A stretch of 60,985 nt of DNA, filler included, from Hausera hauseri (taxonomy: Eukaryota), in the NCBI GenBank assembly GCA_046269625.1. It is 11 parts of 11 records of this genome, joined end to end, with 100 filler letters (N's around TTAATTAATTAA, not from the genome) between each part and the next. Parts side by side here need not be neighbours in the genome. Positions count along the whole stretch, not along the records: positions 9,467 to 15,802 come from JBJURY010111765.1; 10 more parts are not named here. The stretch is one strand, 5' to 3'. Under the pieces are notes generated by a model. The model was not told where the DNA came from. It did no database searches and worked only from the letters and a program-made list of their open reading frames with translations. The translations under genes and the position numbers were made by a program. Numbering within the stretch: the stretch's first letter is position 1; each line of letters begins with the position of its first letter. Of the stretch, positions 1 through 28,895 are shown piece after piece.

Positions 1-1043
1 TCCAAAACAATCAACTCGTAAAATTATCAAAAAAATGATTAAAATCATAGTACCATAGAAGATAATGGTGCTCCATAAGCCACTATAGTCATTACAGGAC
101 AATAAAGTGTTAAAAATTCTATTTGTTTATCTATGGAATTGTTCAAACGGTACAAAATACCAAATCCAGTCAATATAAGGCCGATCACCGTCGAATAAAT
201 AAGACTCCTCTAAAATCTAATTGAAAATATGGAATAAAAATGTTACCCTCTTTTGTGAATAAAAATAAAACACCAACGCAACAAACCCATTAACAATTGT
301 AGAAATAACATTGGTGAAAACAATTGGTATGTCACGTACTAGAAGACCGTATTTCAACCAACTTAAGGAACTAAAACAAAAAATAACATTATGAAATGAA
401 ATATATCAAACGATGATATGTTTGCACTGTATGGAAAAAACGAAAACGTATCTGACGTCTTCCGATTTTTGATATTTCGAATGATCAATCTGTGTCAACA
501 TTAAAACAGTTCATCATAATCTAATACACAAATACAAAAATACACCATTTTGGATAAAAGCGAATAATGAAGCTGTAATGCCGAATATATCAGTAAGTGA
601 GATCATTTCCTTCAAAAATTAGCGGGTATCTGTGTATATTGCGAGTGTTAGAAATAAAAATTGAGAAACATTACCCTAATTACAAAAAAAATTCGAGTCT
701 ACACAAAAAGTAGAAAATAAATTTTATTTCGTTAAAACATCGCTTACGTTTATTTTTTACTACTTAGGTGAGCAGCAAAAATCCAAACCGTGTTGTTTAA
801 AGAATATCTGAAGGACACTATAACGGTTTTGTCTTTTTGCTATTCAATGTGCAATGGTGTTACATTAAGATTACAGTTAGGCTTTCCAGATTTCGTTTTA
901 AAATACGGGATAAAATCCGGACAAACAAATATGGCTCATCTAGCGTTACCCGATTCTGTTTGAAAATAAAGGGCAAAAGCCGTACAAACGAATTGTTCCA
1001 GGTATATAATTGATATCCGAATTTTATTAATCGGAAATAATTC

Positions 1044-1733
1044 TGTTAGTAGTTGAAGGTGGACCCTATCCAACACCCAACTATAATAAAAATGCAATTA
1101 ATTTAACAATAGTATTAGCAGATAAGTTCTAACGTTCTCGTTAGAATCTTTGCACCAATTTAGAATGCGTGTACAGCGTGCTGTGCCTTGCGTAGTTTAA
1201 AAACAATTCTCGACCTAACTATGAAATTTAATATGATTTTAATGCTTAGTGTAGTACAAGTCCCTCGTAATGAGCGACGAAAAACTATAGAAGAATTTAA
1301 ATATATAAAATTTTATTATCAACAAAAGTAAATTACTGATAGAATAACAACTGAATATTTACACGATCAATCAGAGGAATAAGTTTGTTCAAGTCTTTCT
1401 TTATCAGTGGGTTAGCTCTACGAATTCGATTTTCTGTCCGTCGTCGATGATATCTGGCGTTTATATAGTAGTTTTAGACACATTGATTTACAGACGGTTT
1501 TCCTTAAATTTCACGTGAATTTTTTTCAATTCTAATTGATTTATCCGATTAAGTACACGTATTCGATAGATTTTCTCAGATTTGTATACAATTTATTTAC
1601 GTTTTCTAAACTTCCGTAGATTGGTTTAATTATTCAATGTATTGTAATCGATTTATTATTGTTTCGCTTTCGGTTTCGATTAGCAAGTTCATTTTCATTT
1701 ACATATTTACAACGGGCGACCACTTTCATAACA
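1044..1733 (-). repeat. 3' LTR (about 690 bp)
   Basis: Minus strand begins TGTTA at 1733 and ends TAACA at 1044; directly follows a purine tract; contains TATATAAA (~1461-1468) and AATAAA (~1312-1317); its last ~230 bp match 59610-59853 in reverse. Confidence 0.85.
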
Positions 1734-1914
1734 TTTCTCCTCCCTGAACGGCACTCTCGGATGTGCCCATTGCGTCAGTAGAGGTGTTGCGTAATCTGTC
1801 CATTCGTCCGCGTAAGTCCACTTCCGAATCTGTTTCGTTAGAGGGTGACTGCGAGTCAATAAAGTAGGATGTAGTGGCCTGTTTGGACAATATCTCCACT
1901 ATTTTTTTATTCAC
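1726..1914 (-). CDS. Short ORF, in-frame continuation of the RING ORF after a single TAG, ending at the PPT/LTR boundary
   Basis: TAG(1921) AAT GGA GTG(1914) is one frame; the ORF ends ..AVQGGEML across the PPT. Confidence 0.4.
   Translation of the reverse strand: MNKKIVEILSKQATTSYFIDSQSPSNETDSEVDLRGRMDRLRNTSTDAMGTSESAVQGGEML
1734..1745 (-). promoter_or_regulatory. Polypurine tract (AGGGAGGAGAAA)
   Basis: All-purine run abutting the TG start of the LTR. Confidence 0.8.
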
Positions 1915-1920
1915 TCCATT

Positions 1921-2529
1921 CTAGTAGTATCTCAGCCTTGTAGCTTCAGCTTTGCATACTGGGCAGGTCGTTTTCCCATTTTTGAGGGTCCACGTTTCTA
2001 TGCAGTATCTGCAGTATTTATGACTGCAGTCCTTGTTATCTAGGACCACGAAACCTTGATAGAGATCAGCATCACAAACGGGGCATTCTTCTTTTTCAGC
2101 TGCGTCGATGTTCACAAGGTTTTCATCCACTTCTATTCTTTCAAATACCAGTCCTTTCTTATTTTGGTATAAGTATCCGTACAATCTCTTTTGATTTGGG
2201 TTTATTGAGCTTTTCTTTGGGTCATCGGATACTGCGACTAAGGTCCATTCGACGATGTTTTGTTTGTCCAAATCGGGTACTCCAGTCTTCTTGTACTGTC
2301 TTTTTAGTTGAATCCTAACTTTGGTATCCACGGGAATTGTCAGTCTATTAGTACCACTCTTTGATTGGAATATTGGGCCTAAGTATCTGCCAATAGTGTG
2401 ATCTTCTTTGGCATATCCGTTTGCACTCACTATTCTTCTTGGAACGGTGGATACGTAAAATATGGCTTTTTTGATTTTCCCTTTGCTATAGTATTCGGCC
2501 ATGACAAGAATTCTTTTATATTCTTTCAC
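1921..2529 (-). CDS. Retroelement-encoded C3HC4 RING finger protein (putative E3 ligase); frame is open from about 2802
   Basis: CPVC-x13-C-S-H-KY-C-RY-C-x11-CPVC at the C-terminus. Confidence 0.8.
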   Translation of the reverse strand: MKEYKRILVMAEYYSKGKIKKAIFYVSTVPRRIVSANGYAKEDHTIGRYLGPIFQSKSGTNRLTIPVDTKVRIQLKRQYKKTGVPDLDKQNIVEWTLVAVSDDPKKSSINPNQKRLYGYLYQNKKGLVFERIEVDENLVNIDAAEKEECPVCDADLYQGFVVLDNKDCSHKYCRYCIETWTLKNGKTTCPVCKAEATRLRYY

Positions 2530-2684
2530 TTCGTCAAATTCTGTGACTATAATTGGTGTATCTTCTTCCCAGTTCTTTCGAAGAACATTAACTTCCGTCT
2601 TAAGGGTTTTGGGCTTAGTAGTTTCTAGTAGATTTTCTCTTTCTTCTTCCCATTTTTTTTGATTCGATATTCTTTTCTGATCAT

Positions 2685-3668
2685 TTATGGGTTTCTCGGG
2701 AAGTAGGTTATCTGTCGCTGGGCCTTTGCTGGTCTTGCTTCTTTTTTGTTGATGTAGTCCAGGAAAGAGGTCTTTGTCTTTTGCCTCTTCGATTTCTCTG
2801 GATTATCAGCTCTTACTGTTACTTCTTCTTGAGTTTTACTGGTTGATGGTTTCTGTTGATTGCTTTGAACTTCTGTGGGGTTTTTATAGACTGTTATTCG
2901 GAATTGGTTATGCTCACGGGTTTCGATCTGTCGATAACTAGGGTATTCACTAAACCCTTTTCGGAATTTTTGCATCAGTGCCTTGGGGTTGTTGTCAGAC
3001 ATCGCATTTTGTACACGGTTTCTGGGTTTCCATTCGTGATGCCATAGTAATGAGTTATAGATATCCTTTATAAATTTGGTCCTTTGGCTTGCTGTCATTA
3101 GCTTAGGGAATTTGAATCGATCGCCATTCATGGCTTCTAGCATCATCTTAAATTGCGATTCACGGGATGCTGATGGAAGCAGACATCCTCTTTTCCGCAT
3201 CAATGTATTTTCCACTTGGCTCACTACTGCTGGGTTCCGGCTCAATTCTCGAATTTCGGCTATGTATTCGTGCCTAATTTGTAGTCGTTCCAGTGCTTCG
3301 TGCACTCGAAATCCGGTAACGACGTATCCATATGAATAATGGCTTATATCTTCTTGGATCTCCAAAAAATCTTTTACCTTTTCGAGCTGTGACTTCGTGA
3401 TTCCAGTAACGTCGGGGAAAGTATCTTTTATCCTAGCCCGAGGTGCTATTATTTTGTTTATGATTTCCTCTCCATTAGTATTTCTGATGGAAACCTCAAT
3501 CGGAAAGTACCATTTATCGTCTTTTTCTCCATAGTTTACGGCCAATATCCGAGTATTTTGGCCATCTGAAATGAATCTGTAAGACTCTCTATTTTGCTCT
3601 ATCTCATATTTAGATGGTTTCTGTACATACAATAACGGGGGTAGCGGCTTCATTATTTTTTTTGCCAT
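2685..3668 (-). CDS. DEDDh (REXO4/ISG20-like) exonuclease-fold protein, catalytic motifs degenerate
   Basis: ILAVNY..IEVSIRNTNGEEIINKIIAP..DVTGITKSQL..DF.EIQ.DI...GYVVTGF follows the REX4/ISG20 pattern VALDCE..RVSIVN..G..LYD.YVKP..VSGI..HL..F..VQ..V..LL.GRILVGH; DxE is replaced by NYG. Confidence 0.65.
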   Translation of the reverse strand: MAKKIMKPLPPLLYVQKPSKYEIEQNRESYRFISDGQNTRILAVNYGEKDDKWYFPIEVSIRNTNGEEIINKIIAPRARIKDTFPDVTGITKSQLEKVKDFLEIQEDISHYSYGYVVTGFRVHEALERLQIRHEYIAEIRELSRNPAVVSQVENTLMRKRGCLLPSASRESQFKMMLEAMNGDRFKFPKLMTASQRTKFIKDIYNSLLWHHEWKPRNRVQNAMSDNNPKALMQKFRKGFSEYPSYRQIETREHNQFRITVYKNPTEVQSNQQKPSTSKTQEEVTVRADNPEKSKRQKTKTSFLDYINKKEARPAKAQRQITYFPRNP

Positions 3669-4245
3669 GTAATTTCGATCATGATTTTTGTCGGAAGGTC
3701 TGCAATTCTGATTTCTACAGCATAATTCATAAGGCTATAGCAACATAGCTCATAAGTGCTAAATTTCCATTGCTGTCCCCTTTTGTGTGCTCCAGGATTG
3801 TCCTACGATCCTCTATTGAATTTCTCCATTAGCGACATGTACGTATAATTGCTGATGTGTTGGCTCATGGAATTAGATCTTTTAAGAGGTATGCTCGTGC
3901 ATCCTTTGGACTTTGCATGGCGTATAATCGGATCAATCTATTCTCTTCTAAACCCAATTTTAGCCCGTTCGGTATTTTACTCTCTTGGTTGAATTCTAGA
4001 TAATTATGGTATTTCAAGTTTTCTCAAATTTGTCGGTATAGGTTTTTGAATAATGGCTTGGGGACATTGACGTGATGCTGCAAGATATTGTCGATATTGA
4101 AATTGGGATTGACTGATGAATTCTTCGCCTTCTCGGTCATACTTACTCTGCTGAAATAAAAATAAAGATTAATCCTAAGACAGATCATCGTTTTGGAACA
4201 GAAAATTTTCTCTGTCTGATAACAGGATAACCCGATCTGTAGTTG
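3669..4245 (-). pseudogene. Decayed readthrough extension / unknown domain upstream of the exonuclease-like domain
   Basis: QLQIGLSCYQT..CLRINLYFYFSRVSM, IDNILQHHVNV and YVHVANGEIQ*RIVGQSW align with contig 3 QLQIGLFYHQT..CFRIDPYFVFSFKMVSM, VDKFLQGHATV and FIHLADGEVYYRIEDQRW. Confidence 0.7.
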
Positions 4246-4254
4246 TCAGGTTAT
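4227..4254 (-). promoter_or_regulatory. Putative stop-codon readthrough signal UGA-CAA-CUA within a 9-bp hairpin
   Basis: Sense ATAACCTGACAACTACAGATCGGGTTAT; identical 28-mer at 10562-10589. Confidence 0.75.
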
Positions 4255-4566
4255 GCTATCATAAGGTCCGTCTCGGTGCCTGTTTACCCATTTATCTCCC
4301 TTATAATTTTTACAGCGTTTGTTACATTTTTTGGGAACTATAAAAATCATCGCTGTTATTATGATAAGAACGAAAATTGACAAACTGAATATAGTTATTA
4401 TCGATAAATTACTCGGCTCAATAGAACTTTCCGTGGTGAATACATTTTGAGTACTGATATCTTTATATGGCATTACTCCAACCTTGTTGCCAAGAGTTCG
4501 TTCTGTAAAGGTTTTAGAGTTCTTACCCCTCGCAGTAATTTGGATTATATAGTCATGTTTTGGCCG
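4246..4566 (-). CDS. C-terminus of env-like type I membrane protein (FN3 end, TM helix, short basic tail)
   Basis: RPKHDYIIQITA then LSIITIFSLSIFVLIIITAMIFIV-PKKCNKRCK..DGPYDSIT*; homologous to 10581-10930; likely frameshifted near 4480-4510. Confidence 0.7.
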   Translation of the reverse strand, partial: RPKHDYIIQITARGKNSKTFTERTLGNKVGVMPYKDISTQNVFTTESSIEPSNLSIITIFSLSIFVLIIITAMIFIVPKKCNKRCKNYKGDKWVNRHRDGPYDSIT

Positions 4567-5997: not shown

Positions 5998-7493
5998 CTA
6001 ATCCCCACTCTTTAGCTAATATCTTTCGTGAGCAAATTGAGAATTTTACTGATATGGGTAGCGGATGGAAGATGTTAAGATTTTAAAGTACTCTTTCCAC
6101 ATAGTAAAAACAAGCCCACTACCTTATTTGTCTGGAAGGTCTTATCTGTCAACACCTGACGCTTTAAGAAATGCAACGGCCGTTGTTAATGTACGGAATG
6201 ACGATAATTTGTGTTTCTTATACTTATATTATGAGGATGCACAGCTTATCAGGTCAAAGTATAGATGCAGTACTCTTTTGGATTACATGTTGGTATACAT
6301 GAAACTCGATGTATATTTGTTAGATGTTCTTTAACGATTTAGAAAGGAGGTTAAGTTGCAGGATGGATTAGGGGCGGCTAGTTTTGTTTTCGTTCCCGGA
6401 TTATCTTTGGCAACAGCACTGAAAACAAGTCCTTTTAAGACTGAGTTCCTTCAAGATCCTGAAATGTACAGTTTCTTCCAATCGGGTATTCGCCGTGATA
6501 TGAATTTTGTGAATAAACATAGAGTTACCACTAATGAAAGCATTAGTATCTTGTACATAGATGTAAATAGTTTGTATGTCTGGGCTTTATAGCAACCTTT
6601 ACCATTTGCTAATTTGACTTGGATTTATGATGAAGATAAGGTAAATAATCTGACTGAACAATTGCCTTTTGTTGACACTCAATTAGATCAACTACCTTTA
6701 GCTCCAATCAATCAATGTCCTCCTGGTTCGAAAGTTAAGAAATTGTTGCCGACACATGAGCGTAAATCCAACTATGTTATTCACTATTCGGCTTATACAA
6801 TTGTACATCGAGTTATGTGCTGCTCAGTTTGACCAGATTATAACTTTAAGGATTCTATAGATACAAATACTGCTAAGACGGCTTTAGCGAATAATGCTTT
6901 TGAGAAGAACAACAGCCTTATGCTAGCAAGGCCAGTTTAAAGATAGTTTTATTATAGCCGATGATGTAGTTGCCGTTCTACTTGATAAAGACATGGTTAC
7001 ATTATATAGGCCCTCGTACGTTGGTCACGCCGTACTTGATTTTTCTTAGTTACGGATGTACGAGGTAAATTATATTGAGTTGAAATCTTATGGACTACAG
7101 TTTAATTGTGAACTTAATATTATTGCTGGTGACACAGGCATCCTTTTCCTTGTATGCCGTGATGTTGATTTGCAATCACAGCTCTCGCAAGCAATGATAG
7201 CTAATGAACAGTTGGACACTTCGAACTATGATAAAAGTGATCCGTTATACTCAACTCGTTTTGCATCTGTAATAGAAAAATTTATGGACGAGAGTAAGAG
7301 CTGTATCGATTATCAAGAGGGGATTTTCCTACAGACGAAATCATACTCACTGAAAACTCAAAGCAAACCAGTCTTTAAATGTAAAAGCATCAATCTCAGA
7401 CAGACATACTTACAGTTGAACAGCTACCTACAATCATATAAAACAGGTTGTACGACCATTGTGGATCAGAAGCGAAATGTACTGCAACAATAA
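5998..7493 (+). pseudogene. Polinton/adintovirus-type protein-primed DNA polymerase B relic (AGDT variant)
   Basis: SGW, VVNVRNDDNLCFLY, Y.KLDVYLL.DV, GIR, LYIDVNSLY, KLL, IAGDT, LDTSNY..PLYS; many stops and internal deletions. Confidence 0.85.
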
Positions 7494-9466: not shown

Positions 9467-10478
9467 TTCTGCCCAAATTACTATTCATTGATTCGATCAT
9501 CAGCTTGAAGAAGACTTCTGGTGTAGTTGGCCTACTTTTTCCTTGTACGGTCTTTTCCATTTGTTCCTGGACAATTGAGTGAGTAGCTGTTTCCCTAAGT
9601 CCGGTAATATTTGCATCGGATATCCCTAATAGCTCGATTTCCCGTTTTACGTTGTATCCCATTATCATACACCCGTAGAGGCAATGGTCTAACTCAGAAC
9701 GGACCTGTTGAATGTCTTTTCCGCGTATAAGTTGTTACTTTCGTAAACCAGTTACTTCCGCATATGATTCTTGAACATGTTTCCGTGGATTTATAATGGT
9801 AGAGTAAAGCTCAGTTCCATCTCTTTCTCTAATAGATACTTTGATAGCTATCCCATACCAACCGTCTCCTCTGCAACAATCTATCGCCATAATTCTTATA
9901 TTCCGACCATCCTGTACTAGCCTATATGACTGGTAATGTTTGTCTTTTTCCGCTTTGGTTGGGATTTGTTTGAATGCTAAAACTGGCATGCCTAAGTTGC
10001 AGTTTTTCTTATGTATCACCTCAAACATGAGTTTAACAGGGAGGATCGCTATTCTAAATTCTAGGCCATAATCGATACTTTCTAGGCCTTGTCCGTTTAT
10101 TTTCAATGTACTAAATCGGTATTGGCGTCCTTCATTACAGTTCCATCGTTGGTCCTCTATTCTATAGTATACTTCACCATCAGCTAGATGGATAAATATA
10201 TCTTCCACTTTGGCGATACTATTCCGGATCACTTCCTTAAGGCCATACGACTTAGCTTGATTGTTTTCGCGCATCGCGTATAGGAAAACTTTGTGGTTCT
10301 CTTCGGTGGTACCTTTCAAGTCATTTGGTATTTCGTTTACTTTCCGGTATTCAACGTACACTTCTGTTTGTAATACGTCATTTATCCTTCTGTATATGGC
10401 TTTCGATTTGGGAATAAAGACCGTTGCGTGTCCTTGTAGGAATTTGTCGACTCTAATTCGGCTGATCATACTTACCAT
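9467..10478 (-). pseudogene. Unknown domain plus REXO4/ISG20-like exonuclease fold (one premature TAA at 9735)
   Basis: IMAIDCC..IKVSIRERDGTELYSTIINP..VTGLRK*QLIRGKD..V..L..LYGCMIMGYNV; homologous to 2685-3668; 9668 ORF is in the same frame. Confidence 0.7.
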
Positions 10479-10561
10479 TTTGAAAGAAAATACAAAATAT
10501 GGGTCAATCCTAAAACAAAGTATTGTTCTAAAAATGAAGCAATTCTTTGTTTGATGGTAGA

Positions 10562-10589
10562 ATAACCCGATCTGTAGTTGTCAGGTTAT
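10562..10589 (-). promoter_or_regulatory. Putative stop-codon readthrough signal UGA-CAA-CUA within a hairpin
   Basis: TGA at 10583-10581 is in frame, with no intervening stop, with the ATG at 10478. Confidence 0.78.
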
Positions 10590-11100
10590 TCCATCATTGA
10601 TTCCATCCTGTGGTACCATCACCCTTAATTCCCTCTCAGTGATTTTCTGACGCTTAATACAGCAATTTTGGTAATCAATCGACAAAACTCAATTAGAATT
10701 ATGAGAGCAAATATTGATGTTCCGATAATCGATATTAACGACAAGGTTGTCCGTTCGGTTAAATTTTCCGTTTTAGCAGTTGTTTTCATCTCACTTTCCG
10801 TTTCGTCATCGGTCAGTGAATTCGTGAAGACAATTTCGTTTAAGGTTCGTACCGTGAATGTTCTATTTTTTTATTTTCTGCACCTGCTTGTACGATGTAA
10901 TCCTTTTTAGGTTTCAAGTAGGTGCATTTGACCTGATGGCTACCCTTAGCCAGCGTTAATTTTTGATTGTAGTATATTGTTCGATAGTTTATCCTTACAT
11001 CGTGGTTAATTGCTTTTTCCAAAACAAAAGTTATTTCGCGCTGTTGTGTCCAGTATTTTATCGGAATTATTTCTAGATCCTTCTGAGGCAATCTATTCAT
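10581..11100 (-). pseudogene. Env-like protein C-terminal part: FN3-like domain, TM helix and tail (frameshifted)
   Basis: YLKPKKDYIVQAGAEN resembles the FN3 L.P.T.Y.V.V.A.N signature; TLSLISIIGTSIFALIILI is a TM; ends QDGINDGIT*. Confidence 0.65.
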
Positions 11101-11252
11101 TGGAATGATTCTGGCGGATGCATGAATGGTAGACTTTGTTTCCGTAGTTGTAATTCTACTTGTTATTAGAAGCGAATTCTGCTAAATCGAGTTTCTAAAT
11201 TAGTAGCTTCCTAGATAAATATTTGACTGGTTTGTTCTAACTTCATATAAAC

Positions 11253-12869
11253 CTAACTGAATCCTATATTTGTATTTCTGGGGCAACTTGCAACATCTTT
11301 TTGGCCGCTCGACGTCGATTTGGCAGTATTGTTGGTTGTGGACTGGTCGTCCTTTTTTAGAAACTGGACCGTGATTACTTGACCGTTAATTAATCGTCCT
11401 TTTGTGTTTATTTGAACGCAATTATCCTTCGGATTTTCTGTCACACTGGCTATATTTTCTTTTAGCATCCGCTTTACTAGGTCGATGGACTGGAGCATTT
11501 CGTTGGGTTTTATCTCACAATGCTTGTTCCAAGCAGGAACGACTAATTGGAATTGTGGTTTTGTTTTATAGACTTTAGATAAGTTCGGTAAGTATAATCG
11601 ATAGGTCAGATTATAAGTGTGTCCGAAGTCCGTATCGCAACATTGAGTATGTTCTCCTGGTTCGAAATCACAATTCTTTGCTTCTTTTGTTATCACATCC
11701 TCCAGGACAATTTGAAATCTTCCAAAATTGCGGTATGGTTTCTGTGCCTTAAATCCAACGCATGTGGAGTTCGGCAAGTAGTAATAGACTATGACTGATT
11801 GTAACAATGCAATATCCTTTTGCCTTTGGGTTTCTTCTGATCTTGATCCACTTTTCCATGCTTTATATACATTTTTTAATGTAGCTCCGTCGTGCCATCC
11901 TTGAGTTTGAGTTCTCGGAATACGAGAGGCAATTAACGTTAATACTAAAGCTATCTGTACGTACGATATCGATCTGGCAATTATTGAGGAAGTCTTTAAC
12001 TCAGGCTGACGTAAATTGTAACCTTTATTCCGCCGTATCTCGGTTTTAACAACTCTCTGTACTGACACGACTTCTTCATATTGTTTTCTTATTTGTCCCT
12101 GATATTCAAGCGATAACGGTTTTGCGACCTCCCAACATTTTTGCAGTCTTGTCTGCAAAACTTCGGCAAAATTTTGCTCGAGATCCTCGAGGTTCTTTTC
12201 GTAGGGCGTCATGCCTAGATCTGTGGGTAAGATTGCTTCCCATCCATACATCATAAAGAACGGAGTAAATCCTGTCGCAGGATGTAATGTCGTACTGATT
12301 GCGTATTGTGTTCCTTCTAGGAATTTGTCCCAATCCTTTTGGTCTTTTGCCACTACTGTTGATAATATCCGAATGACTGTCGCATTCATCCGTTCGACCA
12401 TTCCATTACATTGGCAATGATACGCGGTAGTAGTTAAACGTTCGATTTCAAACATCTTGGTAATTTTTTCAATTAATTTGCTTATGAAGTTCCTTCCTCT
12501 GTCTGTTAGGATCTGTTCCATTGGTCCGTATTTGCAGATAATTTTTCTTACCACTGCGTCGGCTAGTGTTTCCACTTTTTGATCCAATAATGCCACCAGT
12601 TCGACAAAATGTGTCAATCGATCCACGTATGTTAGAATATATCTGTTGTTTTTGTAAGTTTTATGTAAAGGTCCTACTATATTCACAGGCATGGCGTGCA
12701 TAGGTCTATCTGGTACGTTTATTGGTTTTAGTTTTGCTACGTAGCCTTTTGTCTTCTTTTGTTTCGTTGCGCAAACTTTGCACGCTCCTACCCAATTCTT
12801 TACGTCAATATAGATACTTGGCCAGTAGTATTTATTCAATATTCTTTCCAATGTCTTCTTCCAAGACAT
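11253..12869 (-). CDS. Gypsy integrase fused in frame to a signal-peptide-like segment and Cys-containing glycoprotein ectodomain
   Basis: YYWP..C..C, NIVGPL (first catalytic D is N), TDRGRNF, GMVERMN, TGFTPF; then ISYVQIALVLTLIAS and a domain with sequons NST, NLT, NLS, NNT. Confidence 0.85.
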   Translation of the reverse strand: MSWKKTLERILNKYYWPSIYIDVKNWVGACKVCATKQKKTKGYVAKLKPINVPDRPMHAMPVNIVGPLHKTYKNNRYILTYVDRLTHFVELVALLDQKVETLADAVVRKIICKYGPMEQILTDRGRNFISKLIEKITKMFEIERLTTTAYHCQCNGMVERMNATVIRILSTVVAKDQKDWDKFLEGTQYAISTTLHPATGFTPFFMMYGWEAILPTDLGMTPYEKNLEDLEQNFAEVLQTRLQKCWEVAKPLSLEYQGQIRKQYEEVVSVQRVVKTEIRRNKGYNLRQPELKTSSIIARSISYVQIALVLTLIASRIPRTQTQGWHDGATLKNVYKAWKSGSRSEETQRQKDIALLQSVIVYYYLPNSTCVGFKAQKPYRNFGRFQIVLEDVITKEAKNCDFEPGEHTQCCDTDFGHTYNLTYRLYLPNLSKVYKTKPQFQLVVPAWNKHCEIKPNEMLQSIDLVKRMLKENIASVTENPKDNCVQINTKGRLINGQVITVQFLKKDDQSTTNNTAKSTSSGQKDVASCPRNTNIGFS

Positions 12870-13199
12870 ATGTTCGGCTCAATGTAAAGCATGTTCGGCA
12901 ATGAGTAGTTCTGTGCGCATTTCTTTTGGAATAACTATTAATTGTTGTCAATTTCGTTCATAATACAGGATATTATCCTGGTTTGAGGCGTGATATTTAT
13001 GTCCGTGTTTCTGCAGGTGTTTTTTTAGTTGTCGTCCTTTGGGCATTTCGCCGTTCTGTGCGAACTTAACAATTTGCTGAATAACTTTATCTTTGGCTTG
13101 CTCGGCTGTAATTCTAATTGTTTTATCCATTATTAGAGTTCGTTGTAGTTCGATCATTTGTTCGATATGCTGCCTTTTTGCTATAGTAATTGCACTCGT

Positions 13200-15280
13200 T
13201 TTTGCCTTAAGCCTTGATAGTGCATCGGCGTCGACATGTTTATTTCCCGGTTTGTATTGAAATTCAATGTTATATCGTGAGATCTCTTCAATCCAACGGT
13301 TTAGTCTACATGTCGGATTATTGGCTCATCCTTTCAATGTCGTAACTGCCTTGTGGTCAGTTACTATTATAATCCTTTGTCCGTAGACATAGACATTAAA
13401 ATGTCATAATGTTTCCTTAACGGCTAACGTTTTTAATTTGGTAACCGAATAATTCTTTTCTGCTTTCTTTAGTGAACATCTACCATAGGCTATCGGGTGT
13501 TCTAGTTCCTCATCCTCTCGTTTTTGAGCTAATTCATAACCTATACCTTCTTTACTTGCATCTGTTTTACTGATGAATGGTACGTTGAAATCAGGGTATC
13601 TTAGGACCGGTTTGCTTGTTAAAATTTTCTTAATTTCGTCGAATGCCTTTTGCCCTATTTCCGTCCATCTCCACTTAGTTCCTTTCTTGAGTATGCGATA
13701 TAGTGGCGCATTGATTTTCGAATAGTCCGGTACGTAAGGGGCATAATATCCACATAGGCCTAGCCAATGCCTTAACTCTTTGGTTTTGATATTTTGTCTA
13801 ATAGTGACTTATCTGGTCTTGATCCTCCTTCTCCAACTATGTGTCCGAGGTATGATACTGCGTTCTTGGCCCATTTACATATCTTTGATTTAGTTTCAAA
13901 CCTGCTTGTTGCAACCGCATGAGAATATCTTCAATGTATTTTAAGTGTTCTTCTTCTGTTTTTGATGCTAACATCACATAGTCTAAGTACGCGAATGCAT
14001 GATCAAGTCCCATCAGCATCTTATTCATCATTTTATTAAAAATAGTTTGTCCTGTGGTGATGTCAAAATGCATAACATTAAATTCGTATACGTTATCGTG
14101 TGTTTTGAACGCGGTCTTATATCGATCTTTTTCTTTGATTTCCACTTGCCAGTATCCCGATTGTAAGTCGAGAGTGGTAAACCATTTTTCTCATGATAGT
14201 CTGTCTAAAGCTTCCTTTACTGATGGTAGGGGGAACGAGTCTTTCATCATCAGTGTGTTTAATGCCCCATAATCTATACAAAACGAATGTTTTGAATATT
14301 ATTTTTCTTAACCATAAGTATATGAGAGTACCATGATCAGTAGCTTTGTCGAATTATGTCGGCCTTTAACATTCGCTCGACTTCTTTAGTTATCTGCGGT
14401 CTCAATGAGTGAGGAGGCGGGTACCACTTGGGCATTTTCTTTTCTTCTAGATCGATCTCGCCATTTCAGCCGGGTTTCTTCCTTAATGGAATTGTTTATC
14501 ATAGTGCTTTTGCTCTACCTATGTTTTCTTCGTTTTGTGCAATTATCGAACTGTATTTGCATAATAATTCGTGGAACTTGTAATACCCTTCCGGAGAGAA
14601 TTTGGTTTCGACGTGAGGTGGAAATTCAGCGCACTTGTATGGATTTTCTTCTACTTTTATTGCCGATACCCTAGAAGTGTGACCTAGAGTAGTGTTAACG
14701 TGCAATCGTACGGGAATTGGTGCATTGTTCACTAATCTGATAGGTATTCGTCCCGTCACTACTCTACATAGAATATTGATAATCATGAGGTTTGGGTCGA
14801 TATTCTCTTGAGGTTCAAAATATACCGGCAGATCTTCGTCTTGGCAAATCTGTGCGAAAATTATCATTTCGGTCTTGGGCGGAATATCTTCGTCTACCGG
14901 AATCCATACTTCTCCCGATTTCCTTTCCTTTATTACTTTCGTCCCTTTTATTGGTTTGAGCTCAACTAATTTTCCATTATGTACATCAATTGCCATACCT
15001 GGTATCTGTTTCAATATATCACAACCTAACACTACATCGTCTATCAACTGGTCCATTACCTCGAATTCATGTTGAAGTGCTTGGCCCATCATATAAAAGG
15101 TAGGAGTCCATTTGAATTTCGGTTTCGATACCTGTCCAAATGCTTCTAATCTACCAGGGTCCGATAATAATGGTGAGAATAGTTGGTCGCGTAGTGTGAT
15201 TGGCATTGATTCGTGTTTTATAAACGACTTTTCTGATCCTGTGTCGATTAAGGCGTATACCTTCCAATCTTCGACGTATA
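13200..15280 (-). pseudogene. Gypsy pol: aspartic protease, dUTPase-like spacer, RT, RNase H (multiple stops and frameshifts)
   Basis: ALIDTGS, VVLGCDIL, LDLQSGYWQV, KTAF, PVLRYPDF, VTDHKA, YKPGNKHVDADALSR. Confidence 0.9.
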
Positions 15281-15902
15281 TTTAAGAAAGGGTCTTCCCT
15301 CTACTACAGTTCTGTGGCAATTTGATGTTATTTTTGACTGTTATAGTAAAGATTCTGTGTCCATTTATCGTTATTTCTGGGGATGAAATGATATCTTGCT
15401 TTAATTGTCTTAATTCTCCATTCGGGTACAAATCATTATTTGTTATTTCCGTGACGCGGTCGTCAATGAGTGGTTCTTGAGGTAAGGGGCCTGAGATCGA
15501 GCATAGCCTCGGGTTCTCCCAGATTGTTGATTTTGATTCTATGTGACGAGATATTCTTTTCGAGTACAATATTCCGTGGTTGTTTTCTGTTGGTTCTTTG
15601 TTGATAACATTCATTTTCCGTAGTACTCCGTATTGTTTTGTTTTTTCATAAGGGTCTTCATAGTTAATGGGCTTTTAATAGATTTCGGATCTACATGATA
15701 CTATCGATTTGCGGTCGCAGTCTTCATATATTGGCGCTGTTGGTGGCATGATGGGCAATGGTGCGTTTATTACTGAGTACATCCTGTGCATCCTTACTCT
15801 GGNNNNNNNNNNNNNNNNNNNNNNNNNNNNNNNNNNNNNNNNNNNNTTAATTAATTAANNNNNNNNNNNNNNNNNNNNNNNNNNNNNNNNNNNNNNNNNN
15901 NN

Positions 15903-17577
15903 CCTGTGTTGTCGCTGGCAGAAGTGGATTGTTTACATTAGCCTCGGTGCTAATAGTTAGCTGTCGTTGTTCTTGAGGGTTCAGTAAGGGTTCATTTGTT
16001 GCAGCGCTTTGAGTGGGCCTGGAAGAAGTCATCGTAGCAGGTGAGTGTTCCTGATTTAGTGTCAGATTAGGTCTTTGGGTGGGCGTTGCGTCATCGGTTT
16101 GCGACAGTGTTGGGTCCCTGGGTAATCGCGTCGCATCGTAGGTCAACAGTAGATCTTTAACTTCATCAACAGTTCGTAAAGAGAAACGTTTGCCCAAATT
16201 ATGTCTCGCCCATTTGGTAGCAATTATTAAAGGGGCCTCGAAAACCCCGCCAAGATCAGAGAGGAATTCTGTTTCATTTGAAATCTGTTCTTCGTAATGT
16301 TGTCTTAAAATACCAATGGTATTTTTGGCCCAACTTTTAGCATTGTTAGCGATCAGTTCACTCGTTTCTGGGGAGGGGTTAGCCGGTTTAATAATTGTCT
16401 CTAAATTGTTGGTAATCTTCTGAATAGCAGGAGGGAGACTCTCATCATTTGACACGTACTTAAGGTGATGTTTAGCTTTCAGGATTCTGTGCAAAGTCCT
16501 GACTTTAATGGTGAAATGTTCATCATTGGACGAATTGTGTGTCACCGTGGGCTCTGAATTGTTTTGGGGACTTACGTGATGTGGCCTCCGTTGTCTCCTG
16601 AAGTGGGTTGGGCCTCTGTTGTTATTATGGTGTTGATGATCCGATGTTTGTAGATGTTCAGTGGGTCGAGGGTTCTGTTGGGGACTCAAATGATGTGAGT
16701 CACGAGATCTCCTGGTCGAGGTCCGGTTTCTGTTCAAGTGGTCGTGGTCTTGATGCTGTTGTCTCCTACTCTGTCTGTGATTCTGTTCGTCAGGTGGGTG
16801 GAATGTTTCAGCAGGCCAGAAGTTTCTCTGAGGACTCACACGGCGTGGATGTCTGGGTGGAGTTGGACTTCTGTTGTTCCTGTGATACCGGTCATGAGGT
16901 GGGTGAAATGTTTCAGCAGGCCAGAAGTTTCTCTGAGGACTCGCACGACGTGGACGCCTGGGTGAGGCTGGACCTCTGTTGCTCCCATGATAACGGTCCT
17001 GAGGTGGGTGGAATGTTTCCGCAGGCCAGAAGTTTCTCTGAGGACTTGCATGACGGGGACGTCTAGGTGGGGTTGGACTTCTGTTGTTCCTGTGACGTCG
17101 ATCGTGAGGTGGGTGGAATGTTTCAGTAGGCAAGAAGTTTCTTCTGGGTGAGGCTGGAGGTCTGTTGTAGCTGTAGTCCTGGTCTTCAGGTCGATGGAGT
17201 GCCTCAGTAGGACAAAGGTTCTGCGCAGGACTCACATAACGTTGGTGTTGTCGTTCTCTAATTGGAGATGTGTTTGTGTTCCTTCTGTAGTGACTGTGGT
17301 GGTAAGATCGGCGCCCCCGCGCAGAGCCATTGGCAGGACGAAACCCGCCTCTGTCCCAAGTCCCATCCTCACGTGCTTGCCAGCGCCGAGATGGGCGTCC
17401 ACGAGTCACCGAGGCATAAGTCCTGTGTTCAGGCCTGGAGCTCGGAGGGTCATGTCTCTCCCTCTCATCCCTCAGGGGGCTTCTGTAGGGCTGGTTCTGC
17501 TCGTGGAATCTTCTTTTACCACGGTGGTAATGGACCGTGGTCCACGGATCTTCATGTTGGTAAGGCATTTTTTTCAA
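15903..17577 (-). CDS. PLE ORF1 N-terminal part (R/S/P/H-rich, 35-aa repeats); continues in frame at 22508
   Basis: ..LLPATTQ joins AHPPPPPQHRPTVTTAGT-MTDSIP across the terminal overlap; joined ORF about 917 aa. Confidence 0.85.
16560..17150 (-). repeat. 105-bp (35-aa) tandem repeat in ORF1
   Basis: GGAATGTTTC..CAGGCCAGAAGTTTCTCTGAGGACT units near 16800, 16905, 17010, 17115 plus degenerate copies; protein SPQRNFWPAETFHPP. Confidence 0.9.
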
Positions 17578-17733
17578 AAAATGTTGTTTAAAATAGAGCT
17601 GAGCAAAAAATGTCAGTAGGCTGCTAAAAGCTGCAGAATTGTTGGAAAAAATGCAAAAAAAAGAAATGAAACTGTGGCTTGTTTTTTGCCTTTTAGCTTT
17701 TTTAATAAAAACTATTTACAATATTTACAAGAT

Positions 17734-17797
17734 ACAGCATTTATAAAGGACAACGTTTCGGCTTATGATCGAGCCTTCTTCAGGTCAAAAATGCTGT
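17734..17797 (-). ncRNA. Type I hammerhead ribozyme
   Basis: Sense ACAGCATTT-TTGAC-CTGAAGA-A-GGCT(loop)AGCC-GAAAC-GTTG-TC-..-AAATGCTGT: CUGANGA and GAAA cores, stem II GGCT/AGCC, outer stem ACAGCATTT/AAATGCTGT. Confidence 0.85.
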
Positions 17798-17826
17798 TTC
17801 AAACAGTAACTGGAACCTGCTACCCC

Positions 17827-17909
17827 TATATATAGGAAAAAATTCAAACTGTAGCTTTGAAGCAGGAAAGAGCCCCGATTGGCCCAAGGTGCATGGTTTA
17901 GTCCAATCA
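17827..17909 (-). promoter_or_regulatory. Putative Pol II promoter of the PLE (TATATATA box and two CCAAT boxes)
   Basis: TATATATA ~17827-17834, about 30 nt upstream of the hammerhead; CCAAT/ATTGG at ~17878 and ~17903. Confidence 0.55.
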
Positions 17910-18384
17910 TGTGCCAGGGGTGTGGCCAGGTGTCGATTTAAATGCACCTGTTAGGTCTGGCATTATGTTGAGGCAATAGAAAGTCCTTTTGTGAGAACCA
18001 TATAACTGGGAAAAGTATAGTTAATACTATATGGCTTCAGCACATAAACAAGGTATAATAAAATCAGGCATCAAACAATATAAAGGGTAAATAGAACAAA
18101 AATTAGCTTCAAATTACATTCCAAAGTAACGTCCAAATAAGGTTGTTCATGAAATAAAGTAAAAGTGTTGTTAAACCATCTTGTGATAAAATAAAATATT
18201 TTTTTACACACAGGACTCACATGATGTTTGGGCTGCAGAGGTCACAAAACTGTCAAACTAAAAGCGACAGCCCCATCTAGTGGACAAAGTAAGTAATTAC
18301 AAAATAAAATGAAATAAAATAAAGGAGTCCCCTGTTTGGGTTTATTAAGGTGAAGAACATGAAAATCTAGTGGTTTTGGAGTGG

Positions 18385-19085
18385 CTTAAGTTTAGGAGGG
18401 GAGAAGTAGGCTTTATTTAAAAAAACTTGGTTAAGTTTAGGGCTGATCTGGTAATAGGTTCAGGTTGGAAATGGTTAAGTTTAGTTTGGTGACTTGGTTA
18501 GGCTCTCAAGTTGGTTAAATTTAGGTTAAATTAGGGTTAATGTGGATCAGATTTGTTGGTTAGGGTTAGGAGCAAGTAAATATAGGTTCAGTAAGACACC
18601 AATTCGGTTTTAGGGTCAGATTGAAGTCAGGTTAAGTGTCATTCATGGAGCGAGATTGCCCTCTTGTGGACAACCCGGAGAACTGAACAAAAAGAGAGGT
18701 TATTTTATAGACTAAATTATTTGATCCTGATTATTTTAATAATAGATGGTTAGGTTTAGGGCATACTTGAGATGGTTCAGGTGAAAATTGGTTAAGCTTA
18801 GGGTTTGGTATCCTGGTTAGGCATTAAAACTGATTGAATTTTTGTTTTGTGTTTAATTCAAATTAATCTGGATAAGGGTTATGGTTAGGTTAAGGAAAGT
18901 TGAATGTAGGTACATTAAAGCACAGATTAGGTTTTAAGGTCGTATTGGTAAATGTTTTAGGTTTAGGAATAAGAGCGAGATTGCCCTCCAAATGGATTAG
19001 GTTTTGTAGGAATGATATTGGGGCCATCAGAGGGGCAAGGACTGAAGGTGGGACTCAATTAAGAAGGCACTGGCTAGGTTAGGTG
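18385..19085 (+). repeat. Degenerate TTAGGG/TTAGG-rich tract with an internal ~324-bp diverged duplication
   Basis: Many TTAGGG/TTAGGT words; GAGCGAGATTGCCCTC at ~18648 and ~18972. Confidence 0.7.
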
Positions 19086-19095
19086 TGAGGGAGTG

Positions 19096-19128
19096 GAAAA
19101 ATCTGCGGCCGCAGGCCGCAGATTTTTC
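19096..19128. other. Perfect 15-bp stem hairpin downstream of PLE ORF2
   Basis: GAAAAATCTGCGGCC-GCA-GGCCGCAGATTTTTC. Confidence 0.9.
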
Positions 19129-19200
19129 ACGTGTCAGAGATCCTGTTACCAGAGGCAAAGGATCCCCAAATGCACTGGCTCATCTAGAGTGAGTACCCAC

Positions 19201-21450
19201 CTATTTCTCGTTCAGCCCAAGAGGGATGTTTGTATTAAGTCTATTTATCCATATTTTTTCAGCTCTGCGTCTTTGAGCTGTGGACCAAGTGCGGTTGGAT
19301 TCCAACACTGTGGCTGTGACCGCCTGCCAGCCATGTTCAGCAAAATGCTGAACAAGAGGTAAGTGCGTATTTCTGTTTTTGTTAATGTTATACCTATGTT
19401 GGGTGAATCGTTCCAGGATGGTGTTGCCTGTTTCGCCCACATAGTTGATTTTACAAATTTTGCAAGTGATTAAATATACACAATTTTTAGATCTGGGGTT
19501 TCCTGATTGTTCTAATTTAAATACGGTCTTATCAGATCTGTTCTGTACCAAGTTTAATTGTTTGAAGAACTGACTTTTATCATTAGTTTTTTTCTGTTTT
19601 AAAGGTTTTAATTCTGCGTGGACCAGGAGGTCCCTCAAATTTTTGTTCCTTTTATAGGCCGCAATTATCCTGTGATTTGGAAGTAAAGAGTGGTCCGCTT
19701 GTAATTGGTTGAAATTTTGTTTTACGTTGCAGATGAGTAGGTTAGCCGAAGACGAGTAAGTGGTGATTAGAGGAAGCATGGGAGAAGGATCTCTCGATTT
19801 GGCCTGCAGGAATGAGCCTCTGCAAGATCTGAGAAATGACCGGGAGTAGCCACGTTTGGAGAGGGCCGCAAACAGGATCCTCACCGCTTCCTCAAAGTCT
19901 TTGTGTTGGGTGCATATTCTGTGAAATCGAAGTAATTGTGACTTAATTAGGCCTGCGTAAGTGTGTTTTGGGTGGAAACTTGTTTTAAAAAGTAGTGTAT
20001 GTGTGTCTGTTGGTTTGAAATAAACCTTAATGTCCAATTTCTTTGTGGTGTGGAATGTGTCCCCCTTATAGGTTGTGGTGTCCAAAAAATCAACTGTGTT
20101 GAGGTCAGTGGTCGATTTCAGTTGTATTGAGGGATTGAAACCATTAAGCTCCTTAATGAATTCATCAAAGTCAGCCTGTGAGTGGGTCCAAATCCCCCAA
20201 ATGTCATCCAGGTATCTAAAATAATAAAGTGGCTTTTTACTGCAGGAGTTAAGTGCATCTGTTTCCCATTCCGCCATGAAAATGTTAGCGTAGGCCGGGG
20301 CAAATCTTTTCCCCATGGCCGTACCCTTCACTTGAAGAAAGAATTGGCCATTGAAATGGAAATCATTACGCCTTAGGTTGATTTCCAATAGTTTTAGAAT
20401 TTCTTTATCTGGTCTGGAATTGTCAGGATATTTAAGAAAGGCATTTTTTATGGCATTAATACCCTGATCGATATCAATGTTCGTATAGAGGCTGTCAACA
20501 TCACATGTAAATAAAATCGATTCCTCTGGTATGATTGTATGTTTAATTTTATCTATAAAATCATAGGTATCTTTCAAGTAACTGTTGTGTAGCGTTGATA
20601 AAGGAAACAGGAAATGGTCAATGAATTCAGCTGTGCCATATGACTCGCTGGAGCAGTCTGAGACAATAGGTCTCCCAGGGGGGATCTCATGTGGTTTAGT
20701 CCATTTGGAGGGTTCTTTGTGAATTTTAGGTAATAAATAGAATTTTCTCATTCTCACTTCTGAAGAGCCTATCAGGTAGTTTTTTTGTTTGGCGTTGATG
20801 AATTTCTTGATGTATAAGTCCTGGACAGTTTTAACAATCATTGGGATGGTCTCTTTATAAATGGGTTGGTCTAATTGTTGGTAGTAGGTATTATTATATA
20901 GCTGTCTGTTGGCCTCAAAAATGTATTGTTCTCGATCCATTATGACTACAGCGCTCCCTTTGTCAGCTGGTTTTATGACTATGTTTTTGTTTTTTATTAA
21001 CTCTTTAAGGGCCTCATTTTCTACTTTGCTTAAGTTGGGTTGTGCTTTTTTGATTCTGTATTTTTTATCAAAGTATTTCAGATCCTTTTGAATTAAGTTT
21101 CTGATCCCTGGAGGAATTAAGTTATCGTGAGGTGTCCAGTTAGATTCAGGTGTGAATTTGGCGTCAATATCATTGGGAGCTTTTGTGGTATTGTCTTGGT
21201 AGTATACAGCTAATTTGATTCTTCTATGATATCGCTGAAGGTCAAGTCTGGTCTGAAGGATCCTCTTTCTGTCATTGATTGTGCCCTGGGTTGGAATAAA
21301 AGTCAGGCCTTTACTTAGGAGGGAACTTTGAGCTTTACTCAAAATAAAGTGTTTTGAAAGGTTGTAAACATTTTCATTATTAAAGTTACCTTTTTTAGGC
21401 CCCACTTTAATAGAGTTTTTGGGGCGATTTAGTTTAAATAGTATGACCAA
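19201..21450 (-). CDS. PLE reverse transcriptase with C-terminal GIY-YIG endonuclease, intact 749 aa
   Basis: LSKGLTFIP, KPADKGSAVV, YLLPKIHK, GRPIVS, DVDSLYTNI, GTAMG, FRYLDD, FLD; CVYLITC..C..NYVGETG..RFTQH..E..WI..L.T..P.GLN. Confidence 0.96.
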   Translation of the reverse strand: MVILFKLNRPKNSIKVGPKKGNFNNENVYNLSKHFILSKAQSSLLSKGLTFIPTQGTINDRKRILQTRLDLQRYHRRIKLAVYYQDNTTKAPNDIDAKFTPESNWTPHDNLIPPGIRNLIQKDLKYFDKKYRIKKAQPNLSKVENEALKELIKNKNIVIKPADKGSAVVIMDREQYIFEANRQLYNNTYYQQLDQPIYKETIPMIVKTVQDLYIKKFINAKQKNYLIGSSEVRMRKFYLLPKIHKEPSKWTKPHEIPPGRPIVSDCSSESYGTAEFIDHFLFPLSTLHNSYLKDTYDFIDKIKHTIIPEESILFTCDVDSLYTNIDIDQGINAIKNAFLKYPDNSRPDKEILKLLEINLRRNDFHFNGQFFLQVKGTAMGKRFAPAYANIFMAEWETDALNSCSKKPLYYFRYLDDIWGIWTHSQADFDEFIKELNGFNPSIQLKSTTDLNTVDFLDTTTYKGDTFHTTKKLDIKVYFKPTDTHTLLFKTSFHPKHTYAGLIKSQLLRFHRICTQHKDFEEAVRILFAALSKRGYSRSFLRSCRGSFLQAKSRDPSPMLPLITTYSSSANLLICNVKQNFNQLQADHSLLPNHRIIAAYKRNKNLRDLLVHAELKPLKQKKTNDKSQFFKQLNLVQNRSDKTVFKLEQSGNPRSKNCVYLITCKICKINYVGETGNTILERFTQHRYNINKNRNTHLPLVQHFAEHGWQAVTATVLESNRTWSTAQRRRAEKIWINRLNTNIPLGLNEK

Positions 21451-22508
21451 TGATCTAATATTTCATCGGCTGTAGATTCTGACCAGTGAATTTTGTCCTT
21501 GGTAACTTCGAAGAGGTCCTCCTTGAGAGCAGGAATAAAATCGTCAAGTTTGGAAATGTATTCATTTAGGTGATTTAAATTATCCCTTTCCTTCATGGGT
21601 AGTTCTTTTGAGAAGTTAATTATGGGTACCCGGATTGTAGCATTTGGACACTTGCTTTCAATCATTTTCAGAGACTTTTGGATTTCATTTATCAAAGAGT
21701 CCTTGTCTGTTGGTGTTCTGTTATTGATACCCACAGATATAATCATGCATTCAACATTGGGCATCATACTAGTTTTTTGGAAGACACAGTGCAGGTGTCT
21801 CCATTTTGCACCAGGAAAGCAGTGCACTGTCAGATCTGAGAGGCCCTTTATTGGAAGATTTTTCATATTAGAATCACCCAAGATGACCCACTTGGTGTCT
21901 AATTGGCCAATAGACCAGTCCTGTGATTTGTTCAAAGTGTTAGGATGGAGTATTACCTGGGTGGTGGGGGGGACGGTGCTGGATGTTGAAATGTTTTTGG
22001 TACGTGAAATGGTAACAGTGTCATTGAAGGAGATCCTTCTTTGTGTGCTGGCTCTCAGTCTGCGCTTAATGTTAAGCTGCTGCGATCTGGGAGTGATTGG
22101 TGGGTCTGCCCGGTCAGGAGAGAGCTGAAATGAGACATTTCTAGCAGGTGGAACTTTAACCTTGAGTTCGTCTTGAAGCAGTTCATCTAAGTGGATCATC
22201 TCCTCTTCAGTTCTGACTCTTTTATTCGACTGTGAAGGAGTAGGGGGTGGGGGGTGGGGGGTGAAGGGTGGAGCTTGTGACGTAGCCAGTTCAACAACAT
22301 TGGTATTGATTGGATGGCGGGTGGAGACTCTCTCTCGATGAGGAAGTGGAATCCAAGTTTGCTGCAGATCGTAGCGGGGAGGATTTGTGTCCAGATTTTT
22401 GTCTGTAGTGTTTGATCCAGAGGGGGAACATGCTGTCGGGATTGAATCAGTCATTGTCCCCGCAGTGGTGACGGTAGGTCTGTGTTGGGGCGGGGGAGGG
22501 GGGTGGGC
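21429..22508 (-). CDS. PLE ORF1 C-terminal part with SGNH/GDSL esterase domain
   Basis: VILGDSN (block I), FPGA (II), ISVGINN (III), DKIHWS (V). Confidence 0.85.
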   Translation of the reverse strand, partial: AHPPPPPQHRPTVTTAGTMTDSIPTACSPSGSNTTDKNLDTNPPRYDLQQTWIPLPHRERVSTRHPINTNVVELATSQAPPFTPHPPPPTPSQSNKRVRTEEEMIHLDELLQDELKVKVPPARNVSFQLSPDRADPPITPRSQQLNIKRRLRASTQRRISFNDTVTISRTKNISTSSTVPPTTQVILHPNTLNKSQDWSIGQLDTKWVILGDSNMKNLPIKGLSDLTVHCFPGAKWRHLHCVFQKTSMMPNVECMIISVGINNRTPTDKDSLINEIQKSLKMIESKCPNATIRVPIINFSKELPMKERDNLNHLNEYISKLDDFIPALKEDLFEVTKDKIHWSESTADEILDHWSYYLN

Positions 22509-22731
22509 CTGTGTTGTCGCTGGCAGAAGTGGATTGTTTACATTAGCCTCGGTGCTAATAGTTAGCTGTCGTTGTTCTTGAGGGNNNNNNNNNNNNNNNN
22601 NNNNNNNNNNNNNNNNNNNNNNNNNNNNTTAATTAATTAANNNNNNNNNNNNNNNNNNNNNNNNNNNNNNNNNNNNNNNNNNNNGTAAATGAACTTCAGA
22701 TATTATTTAAACCTGTAAAAAACTATAATGG

Positions 22732-25900: not shown

Positions 25901-28895
<2,995 letters not shown>

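Follow-up and report, generated by a model that had tools for sequence, protein, structure and literature searches.

The UGA codon that closes the membrane-protein frame of a decayed retrotransposon from Hausera hauseri is probably a programmed leaky stop, a reading to which we assign a probability of about 0.7. The first-pass annotation had proposed that readthrough controls whether a membrane protein acquires a cytoplasmic extension, and this is still the best-supported reading, in view of a stop context that agrees with that of TMV at 10 of 12 positions, a covarying 3' stem, and a downstream frame (ORF-X) that has no conserved AUG.

An invariant 28-mer in two diverged elements

The window, i.e. 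the whole stretch of 60,985 nucleotides that was analysed, consists of short contigs strung together with N-linkers. The motif occurs on the minus strand of two different contigs, e1 (1-4566) and e2 (9467-15802), both cut at their ends, and by their sequence the decayed elements that they carry are two copies of one retrotransposon family (Table 1). The 28-mer was said to be identical in both, and we find it to be so without a single mismatch; the motif has two matches, whereas 100 shuffles yielded none. No exact match between e1 and e2 is longer (the runner-up has 13 nt), and the stop codon stands at the centre of the 28 invariant nucleotides. In the flanking coding regions, e1 and e2 agree at 34-39% of amino acids and 48-55% of nucleotides; the identity of their proteins is about 37%. 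Because the flanks have diverged to this extent, chance and recent duplication are both rejected as the source of the identity. The eight sense codons of the core are identical in all cases, against a background of 38-42% for degenerate codons of the same residue in the transmembrane and ORF-X regions; in the tail the corresponding count is 6 of 10, which takes in two of the core codons.

Table 1. Positions of the features in the two copies (window coordinates)
Feature	Position in e2	Position in e1	Strand	Basis or remark
Invariant 28-mer (second copy in e1)	10562..10589	4227..4254	-	motif scan
UGA closing the membrane-protein frame	10581..10583	4246-4248	-	sequence
+1..+12 context, CAA CUA CAG AUC	10569..10580	4234-4245	-	fits CARYYA; 10/12 identical to TMV
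Hairpin A, 9-bp core with stop and 6-bp outer helix	10552..10596 (core 10562-10589)	4217-4261	-
Stem B, extended 3' stem-loop, from 12 nt past the stop	10501..10568	4166-4233	-
Protease, reverse transcriptase, RNase H (decayed)	13407..15281		-	Pfam RVP E 0.0019, RVT_1 E 3e-18, RT_RNaseH_2 E 4e-25
Integrase frame, no stop, through signal-like hydrophobic stretch (11928-11984) into cysteine-containing ectodomain	11253..12878		-	one decayed copy only
Membrane-proximal ectodomain piece	10843..11112		-	fibronectin-type-III-like lead: Atlas 0.82; Pfam fn3 E 0.18, under cut-off
Transmembrane segment	10691..10747	4336-4392	-	hydropathy 2.5 and 3.0
ORF-X of e2, in frame with the stop	9468..10580		-	broken by stop at 9735-9737; cut by contig end
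DEDDh-like region of ORF-X	~9603-9896		-
ORF-X of e1, several breaks		1729..4245	-	tblastn of intact relative P0002, E 3e-150
RING finger of ORF-X		~1951-2088	-	Pfam zf-RING_2 E 1.9e-07
Acceptor-like YAG	10511-10510	4176-4175	-	pyrimidine tract; consensus match only
Second acceptor-like YAG, e1 only		4152-4151	-	consensus match only
Donor-like GTAAGT	10475-10470	4146-4141	-	consensus match only
Splice-like signal region as a whole	10470..10511		-	consensus match only

Exact motif scans of viral contigs, metagenome contigs and prokaryote genomes gave no match, and protein-guided locus searches found nothing. More copies came from X1, one public run of one study that may derive from the window's own organism and has 31% of the words of 9470-12900. 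We aligned 485 of its contigs, chosen at 80% likeness, on 10465-10614. The stop context had been expected to be invariant in additional copies, and no difference of at least 2% affects the stop, +1..+10 or -1..-6; this is moderate support, because choosing contigs by likeness favours invariance. Twelve differences of at least 2% are found in this stretch, none of which creates a stop, and no insertion or deletion is listed. Seven of the twelve lie in the apical part of stem B, one is outside both structures and one preserves a pair of hairpin A. At 10559 (67% of depth, 56 contigs) a stem B pair is lost, with no compensation listed. Hairpin A loses pairs through the differences at 10570 (7%) and 10562 (2%), and one of these two disrupts a pair of stem B as well. 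The summed contig depth peaks over the motif at 45,854, compared with about 710 in the median bin, and has a second peak of 25,427 at 9600-9664; we do not count it as evidence, since depth cannot rank the parts of a gene. One X1 contig omits 93 bases, i.e. whole codons, within 10476-10570, a gap that spans stem B and has ends that are not of splice type.

The rest of the window holds other mobile and host-type sequences. Another decayed gypsy-type pol, with RNase H and an integrase zinc domain, lies at 38507-39277 (-) and is devoid of the motif. At 15903-22584 (-) there is a Penelope-like element with reverse transcriptase and GIY-YIG domains, a long upstream ORF that contains repeats of 105 nt, and an exact repeat of 77 nt shared by the two ends of the contig. 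Repeats at 7144-7479 and 49068-50182, on different contigs and in inverted orientation, are related (76-78% alike). A partly decayed copy of USP7 without introns, probably a retrocopy, occupies 25900-28895 (+) and has an open piece of 816 aa, and an intronless cytochrome P450 frame of 338 aa at 34841-35856 (+) is truncated by the contig end. A transporter fragment at 200-760 (-), which we take to be SWEET-like, contains candidate introns of 30-57 nt.

Stop context and alternative RNA folds

A stop followed by CARYYA had been put forward as a leaky context. It is present in both copies as UGA CAA CUA; the hexamer by itself means little, because CARYYA follows a stop 18 times in the window. Over the longer stretch from +1 to +12, the TMV context (taken from PMC13517186, Table 1) is matched at 10 or more positions by only these two among the window's 6658 stop triplets. 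The probability of a 10/12 match by chance is 9e-5 per site, and that for the six bases following the hexamer is 0.006, for a likeness that was noticed post hoc. Base pairing does not account for six of the twelve context bases, because these are unpaired or in the loop of hairpin A.

With a stop and CAR-YYA in both copies, and long in-frame ORFs on both sides (106 codons upstream, to the contig end, and 73 downstream in e1; 35 and 281 in e2), the site has two features of type I readthrough signals. The strict Beier-Grimm nonamer UAGCAAUUA is not present, as the stop is UGA and CUA stands in place of UUA, and neither is the alphavirus-type UGA-CUA or UGA-CGG, the sequence here being UGA-CAA. 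Providence virus may be an exception among animal viruses in having a type I site. The sections on readthrough types in a review give types II and III alone under animal viruses, and describe the CAR-YYA context as active in mammalian cells and, with each of the three stops, in plants and yeast (PMC13517186). According to the reporter results given in PMC3159437, a UGA followed by CAA-UUA and a 3' stem leads to 10.1% readthrough in HEK293 cells.

With respect to other ways of decoding the UGA, an Rfam scan of 10400-10700 matched none of the SECIS families, which bears on selenocysteine insertion, and returned five weak microRNA-type matches, all far under the gathering score. A non-standard genetic code is rejected, since host-type frames terminate at ordinary stops; the host-type genes combine such stops with small, AT-rich introns, as would fit an invertebrate that uses the standard code.

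A 9-bp hairpin with one U-G pair and the UGA in its 5' arm had been noted, and it withstands a shuffling control (-8.1 kcal/mol, z -4.06, 0/200 shuffles). Together with the outer helix it forms hairpin A, in which all 15 pairs are kept between e1 and e2, with one double and one single-sided change; in the free RNA, most core pairs have probabilities of 0.95-1.0. The data do not support the idea that this stop-containing hairpin stimulates readthrough, because a ribosome at the stop would have to open it. A better placed candidate is stem B, which shares its 5' arm (GGUUAU) with hairpin A, so that the two folds are mutually exclusive. After its 12-nt spacer, stem B starts at the same position as the stem of Sindbis virus, at +16 counting the stop, in the description of that stem in PMC13517186.

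The pairs of stem B were defined from e2 alone and then checked in e1, where 18 of the 19 basal pairs are kept, with two double and five single-sided changes; in the apical part only 3 of 7 pairs are kept. When the 24 observed substitutions are re-dealt, p is 0.008 for the stem B pairs kept and 0.23 for the double changes. Slid controls are 34-58% paired, compared with 97% for stem B. RNAalifold recovers the stem with a covariation term of -2.25, and the tool's own shuffle control (103/500) is uninformative with two rows. Folding of +13..+82 gives z -5.31 for e2 and z -1.08 (65/500) for e1, the latter no better than shuffles. The type II feature of a conserved stem 8-12 nt 3' of the stop with compensating changes is thus found for the predicted stem B, in a comparison of two sequences only. 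Hairpin A and stem B have similar energies (-15.1 and -14.8 in e2, -10.9 and -15.4 in e1, respectively). Hairpin A is predicted to dominate in the free RNA; when +1..+12 are blocked, stem B is the minimum-energy fold in e2, and largely so in e1.

The structures could also belong to a signal of the genomic RNA, for packaging, dimerisation, export or protein binding, that overlaps the stop by coincidence, with ORF-X expressed in some other way. Hairpin A would suit such a role as the stable form of the free RNA, with a double change of its own and inactive while a ribosome is on the stop. We nevertheless regard this explanation as improbable, given that the invariant stretch has the stop at its very centre and repeats a context already known for readthrough, and that this explanation would leave ORF-X devoid of a conserved start.

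The frames on either side of the stop

In e2, the order protease, reverse transcriptase, RNase H, integrase is that of Ty3/gypsy elements; e1 is cut before pol. At 11900-12100 (-) of e2, the integrase runs stop-free into the membrane protein. This protein has a signal-like segment (hydropathy 1.9 at 11984), an ectodomain and a C-terminal anchor (2.5/3.0), which in e2 is reached in broken pieces; between the transmembrane segment and the stop, about 30 residues form a basic tail. The continuity of transmembrane segment, tail and stop in a single frame is visible in e1 alone, because the e2 frame is broken near 10665. The protein had been described as env-like: the membrane anchor is there, and an Env identity would be putative, with no Pfam Env match, a model of pLDDT 33 and a weak FN3 lead. 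Comparison with known fusion proteins gave no Pfam or useful PDB match and no homologues. Word-indexed protein searches retained 0 of 733 and 0 of 374 candidates. As nothing ties the protein to known fusion proteins, 'env-like' is a statement about position and topology only. The two AlphaFold models (pLDDT 34.6 and 33.3) were left out of the fold searches. The tail of e1 ends in Y-D-S-I-T (4249-4263, -), with N for Y in e2; the e1 version fits the tyrosine sorting motif YxxPhi, and readthrough would shift it off the C-terminus.

On the other side of the stop, a full HMMER search with ORF-X gave three matches, two of them real, namely P0001 (333 aa, E 1e-48) and P0002 (870 aa, E 1e-47). The third, P0003, was dropped as a spurious match to a bacterial repeat protein, and a profile search returned only P0001 and P0002 among 4417. 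P0002 is intact, spans e1 from 4191 to 1729 and, like e1, ends in a RING finger. Homology to DEDDh exonucleases is indicated by profile A3, built from five pieces, which matches SDN1 (E 7.6e-05), ISG20L2 (E 2e-04) and DnaQ (E 3.5e-04). The catalytic D-x-E of the first DEDDh motif is absent from all four sequences, the D being kept in one. Judged by these matches, ORF-X encodes a DEDDh-like pseudonuclease and a RING finger. In a readthrough product, ORF-X would most likely remain cytoplasmic, since neither e1 nor e2 showed a hydrophobic segment in the pieces behind the stop; none was found in P0001, and P0002 has a single one, at its called start.

The 34 open codons reported between the stop and the ATG at 10478 are correct for e2, and such an open interval of 33-35 codons is weak evidence, as 12-13% of shuffles are open as well. 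The ATG itself is not conserved, as e1 carries AGA at this position. An ATG common to both copies is found at 10469/4140. It could serve separate translation of ORF-X, whether an internal promoter supplies the mRNA or ribosomes re-initiate once they have terminated. Precedents exist in the Tca2 junction tests, which are reported to indicate promoter activity rather than readthrough (PMC2194720), and in the internal promoter proposed for the Sirevirus env in the account of PMC2829016. We consider separate translation very improbable for ORF-X, where P0001 and P0002 have V or T in place of this methionine and yet an open, alignable frame upstream of it. From the sequences compared, the downstream frame is without a conserved AUG.

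The peptide encoded before the ATG at 10478 had been called conserved, and 19 of its 35 residues are indeed identical between e1 and e2. For 15 of these 19, the codons are identical too, so that the conservation of the peptide mostly follows that of the RNA. The frame ahead of a 'VS' dipeptide is open and alignable in all four sequences (e1, e2 and, as proteins, P0001 and P0002), with 10, 10, 11 and 12 residues from a conserved arginine to 'VS', i.e. three whole-codon lengths, and a further 8-45 residues from there to the core.

The same interval contains sites that we take to be acceptor-like (YAG) and donor-like (GTAAGT) by their match to the splice consensus. Splicing is the main rival to readthrough, and we hold it to be unlikely. 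According to this explanation, ORF-X would be translated from a spliced subgenomic mRNA that enters at an acceptor-like AG in the interval, the UGA would be a real stop, and the two hairpins would regulate access to the branch point and acceptor; it may coexist with readthrough. The YAGs stand behind pyrimidine-rich runs and share the same codon phase, the first of them lies within stem B, and GTAAGT follows shortly downstream in both copies. Nearly all of the X1 depth differs from e2 at 10480, the position of the second acceptor-like site of e1, and the conserved aromatic residues ahead of 'VS' could be the read-out of a U-rich tract. In the treatment of LTR elements in PMC5408684, extra ORFs are typically spliced. 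Splicing does not explain why the unpaired bases +2..+8 are invariant and match TMV, the U-rich stretch varies among the four relatives by whole codons only, and the donor-like site has no shared in-phase acceptor in e1 or e2. The 12 joints in X1, none of which is at a splice-like site, are uninformative on splicing, since X1 is not known to be RNA. At 10470-10481 and 4141-4152 (-), the acceptor-like site lies a few bases before GTAAGT, and 'VS' is kept in all four sequences; this may be a micro-exon or a protein motif.

A possible mechanism and its relation to known systems

The stop, its context, the open frame, the domains and the pairing potential with its conservation between the two copies are established, and on them a model of readthrough can be built. 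Most ribosomes would stop after the short tail of the membrane protein, and a minority would continue and attach a predicted cytoplasmic extension of about 850 residues, with the DEDDh-like pseudonuclease and the RING finger. In the free RNA, hairpin A would sequester the stop together with the GGUUAU arm common to both folds. On reaching the UGA, a ribosome would melt hairpin A and cover +1..+12, and the released arm would then pair downstream, which would place stem B at the mRNA entry channel. Termination would be slowed jointly by the TMV-type context and this stem, and a near-cognate tRNA could decode the UGA. One membrane protein would in this way be made as a short and a long form in a fixed ratio, and the long form would hold a probable ubiquitin ligase at the membrane. 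The weakest step concerns hairpin A, which may reset or damp stem B or have a separate job. A bolder version of the model is a ribosome-triggered RNA switch, in which the stop pairs with an arm of the stimulatory stem, the stimulator exists only during ribosome occupancy, the effector of a receptor-like membrane protein (pseudonuclease and RING ligase) is switched on, and the 12-base context has converged on that of TMV; we put this forward tentatively, as a possibility that is doubtful in its full form. Tca2 is a reminder that a stop may come with conserved structure and still show no readthrough in reporters, at least in the experiments described in PMC2194720.

The signal would function as a TMV-type site joined to a stem of the alphavirus type, without being a strict member of either class. 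It shares with type I sites (TMV-type, UAG-CAR-YYA), as characterized in the relevant parts of PMC13517186 and PMC3159437, the CARYYA, 10 of 12 downstream bases, the peptide QLQI and the in-frame ORF past the stop, but differs in the UGA stop, in the animal retrotransposon host and in the conserved 3' stem, which type I sites do not need. With alphavirus-type UGA readthrough, in the description of PMC3159437, it has in common the UGA-C, the conservation of synonymous sites and a stem with a conserved base and a variable loop after a spacer of 8-12 nt. In contrast to that type, CAA-CUA replaces CUA or CGG, the 5' arm of the stem can pair with the stop, and the product is not a polymerase.

Among retroelements, readthrough is known to set Gag/Pol or Pol/Env ratios, and that of SIRE1, between pol and env, reportedly uses CARYYA. 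SIRE1, as presented in the pertinent sections of PMC2194720 and PMC2829016, is likewise an LTR retrotransposon with an in-frame stop for a 3' accessory frame, but it belongs to the Ty1/copia elements of plants and has its stop ahead of env, whereas the order here is that of Ty3/gypsy, with the integrase after RNase H and the stop behind the transmembrane segment. The arrangement is therefore unlike that of SIRE1. The rotifer Juno/Vesta elements with their DEDDy ORF3 (PMC5408684) and planarian Burro (PMC6431247), as far as the descriptions in these papers go, are also invertebrate LTR elements with exonuclease-fold or RING accessory domains. The DEDDy ORFs of Juno/Vesta are described as retaining their catalytic residues and are thought to be spliced, whereas the DEDDh-like ORF-X has no first motif, is joined to a RING finger and lies behind a leaky-type stop; the word 'readthrough' does not occur in PMC5408684. 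A literature search, with most subscription journals and Repbase outside its scope, brought up no case in which readthrough follows the membrane protein of a retrotransposon.

If the reading is true, readthrough sets the ratio of the short and long forms of one membrane protein and puts a probable ubiquitin ligase on the membrane, which would give recoding a novel role among mobile elements. The signal would unite two classes that are usually kept apart, with the context of one and the stem of the other. Within about 100 nt it would offer a compact natural test of whether the TMV bases +7..+12 matter, and of whether a hairpin that contains the stop tunes a downstream stimulator.
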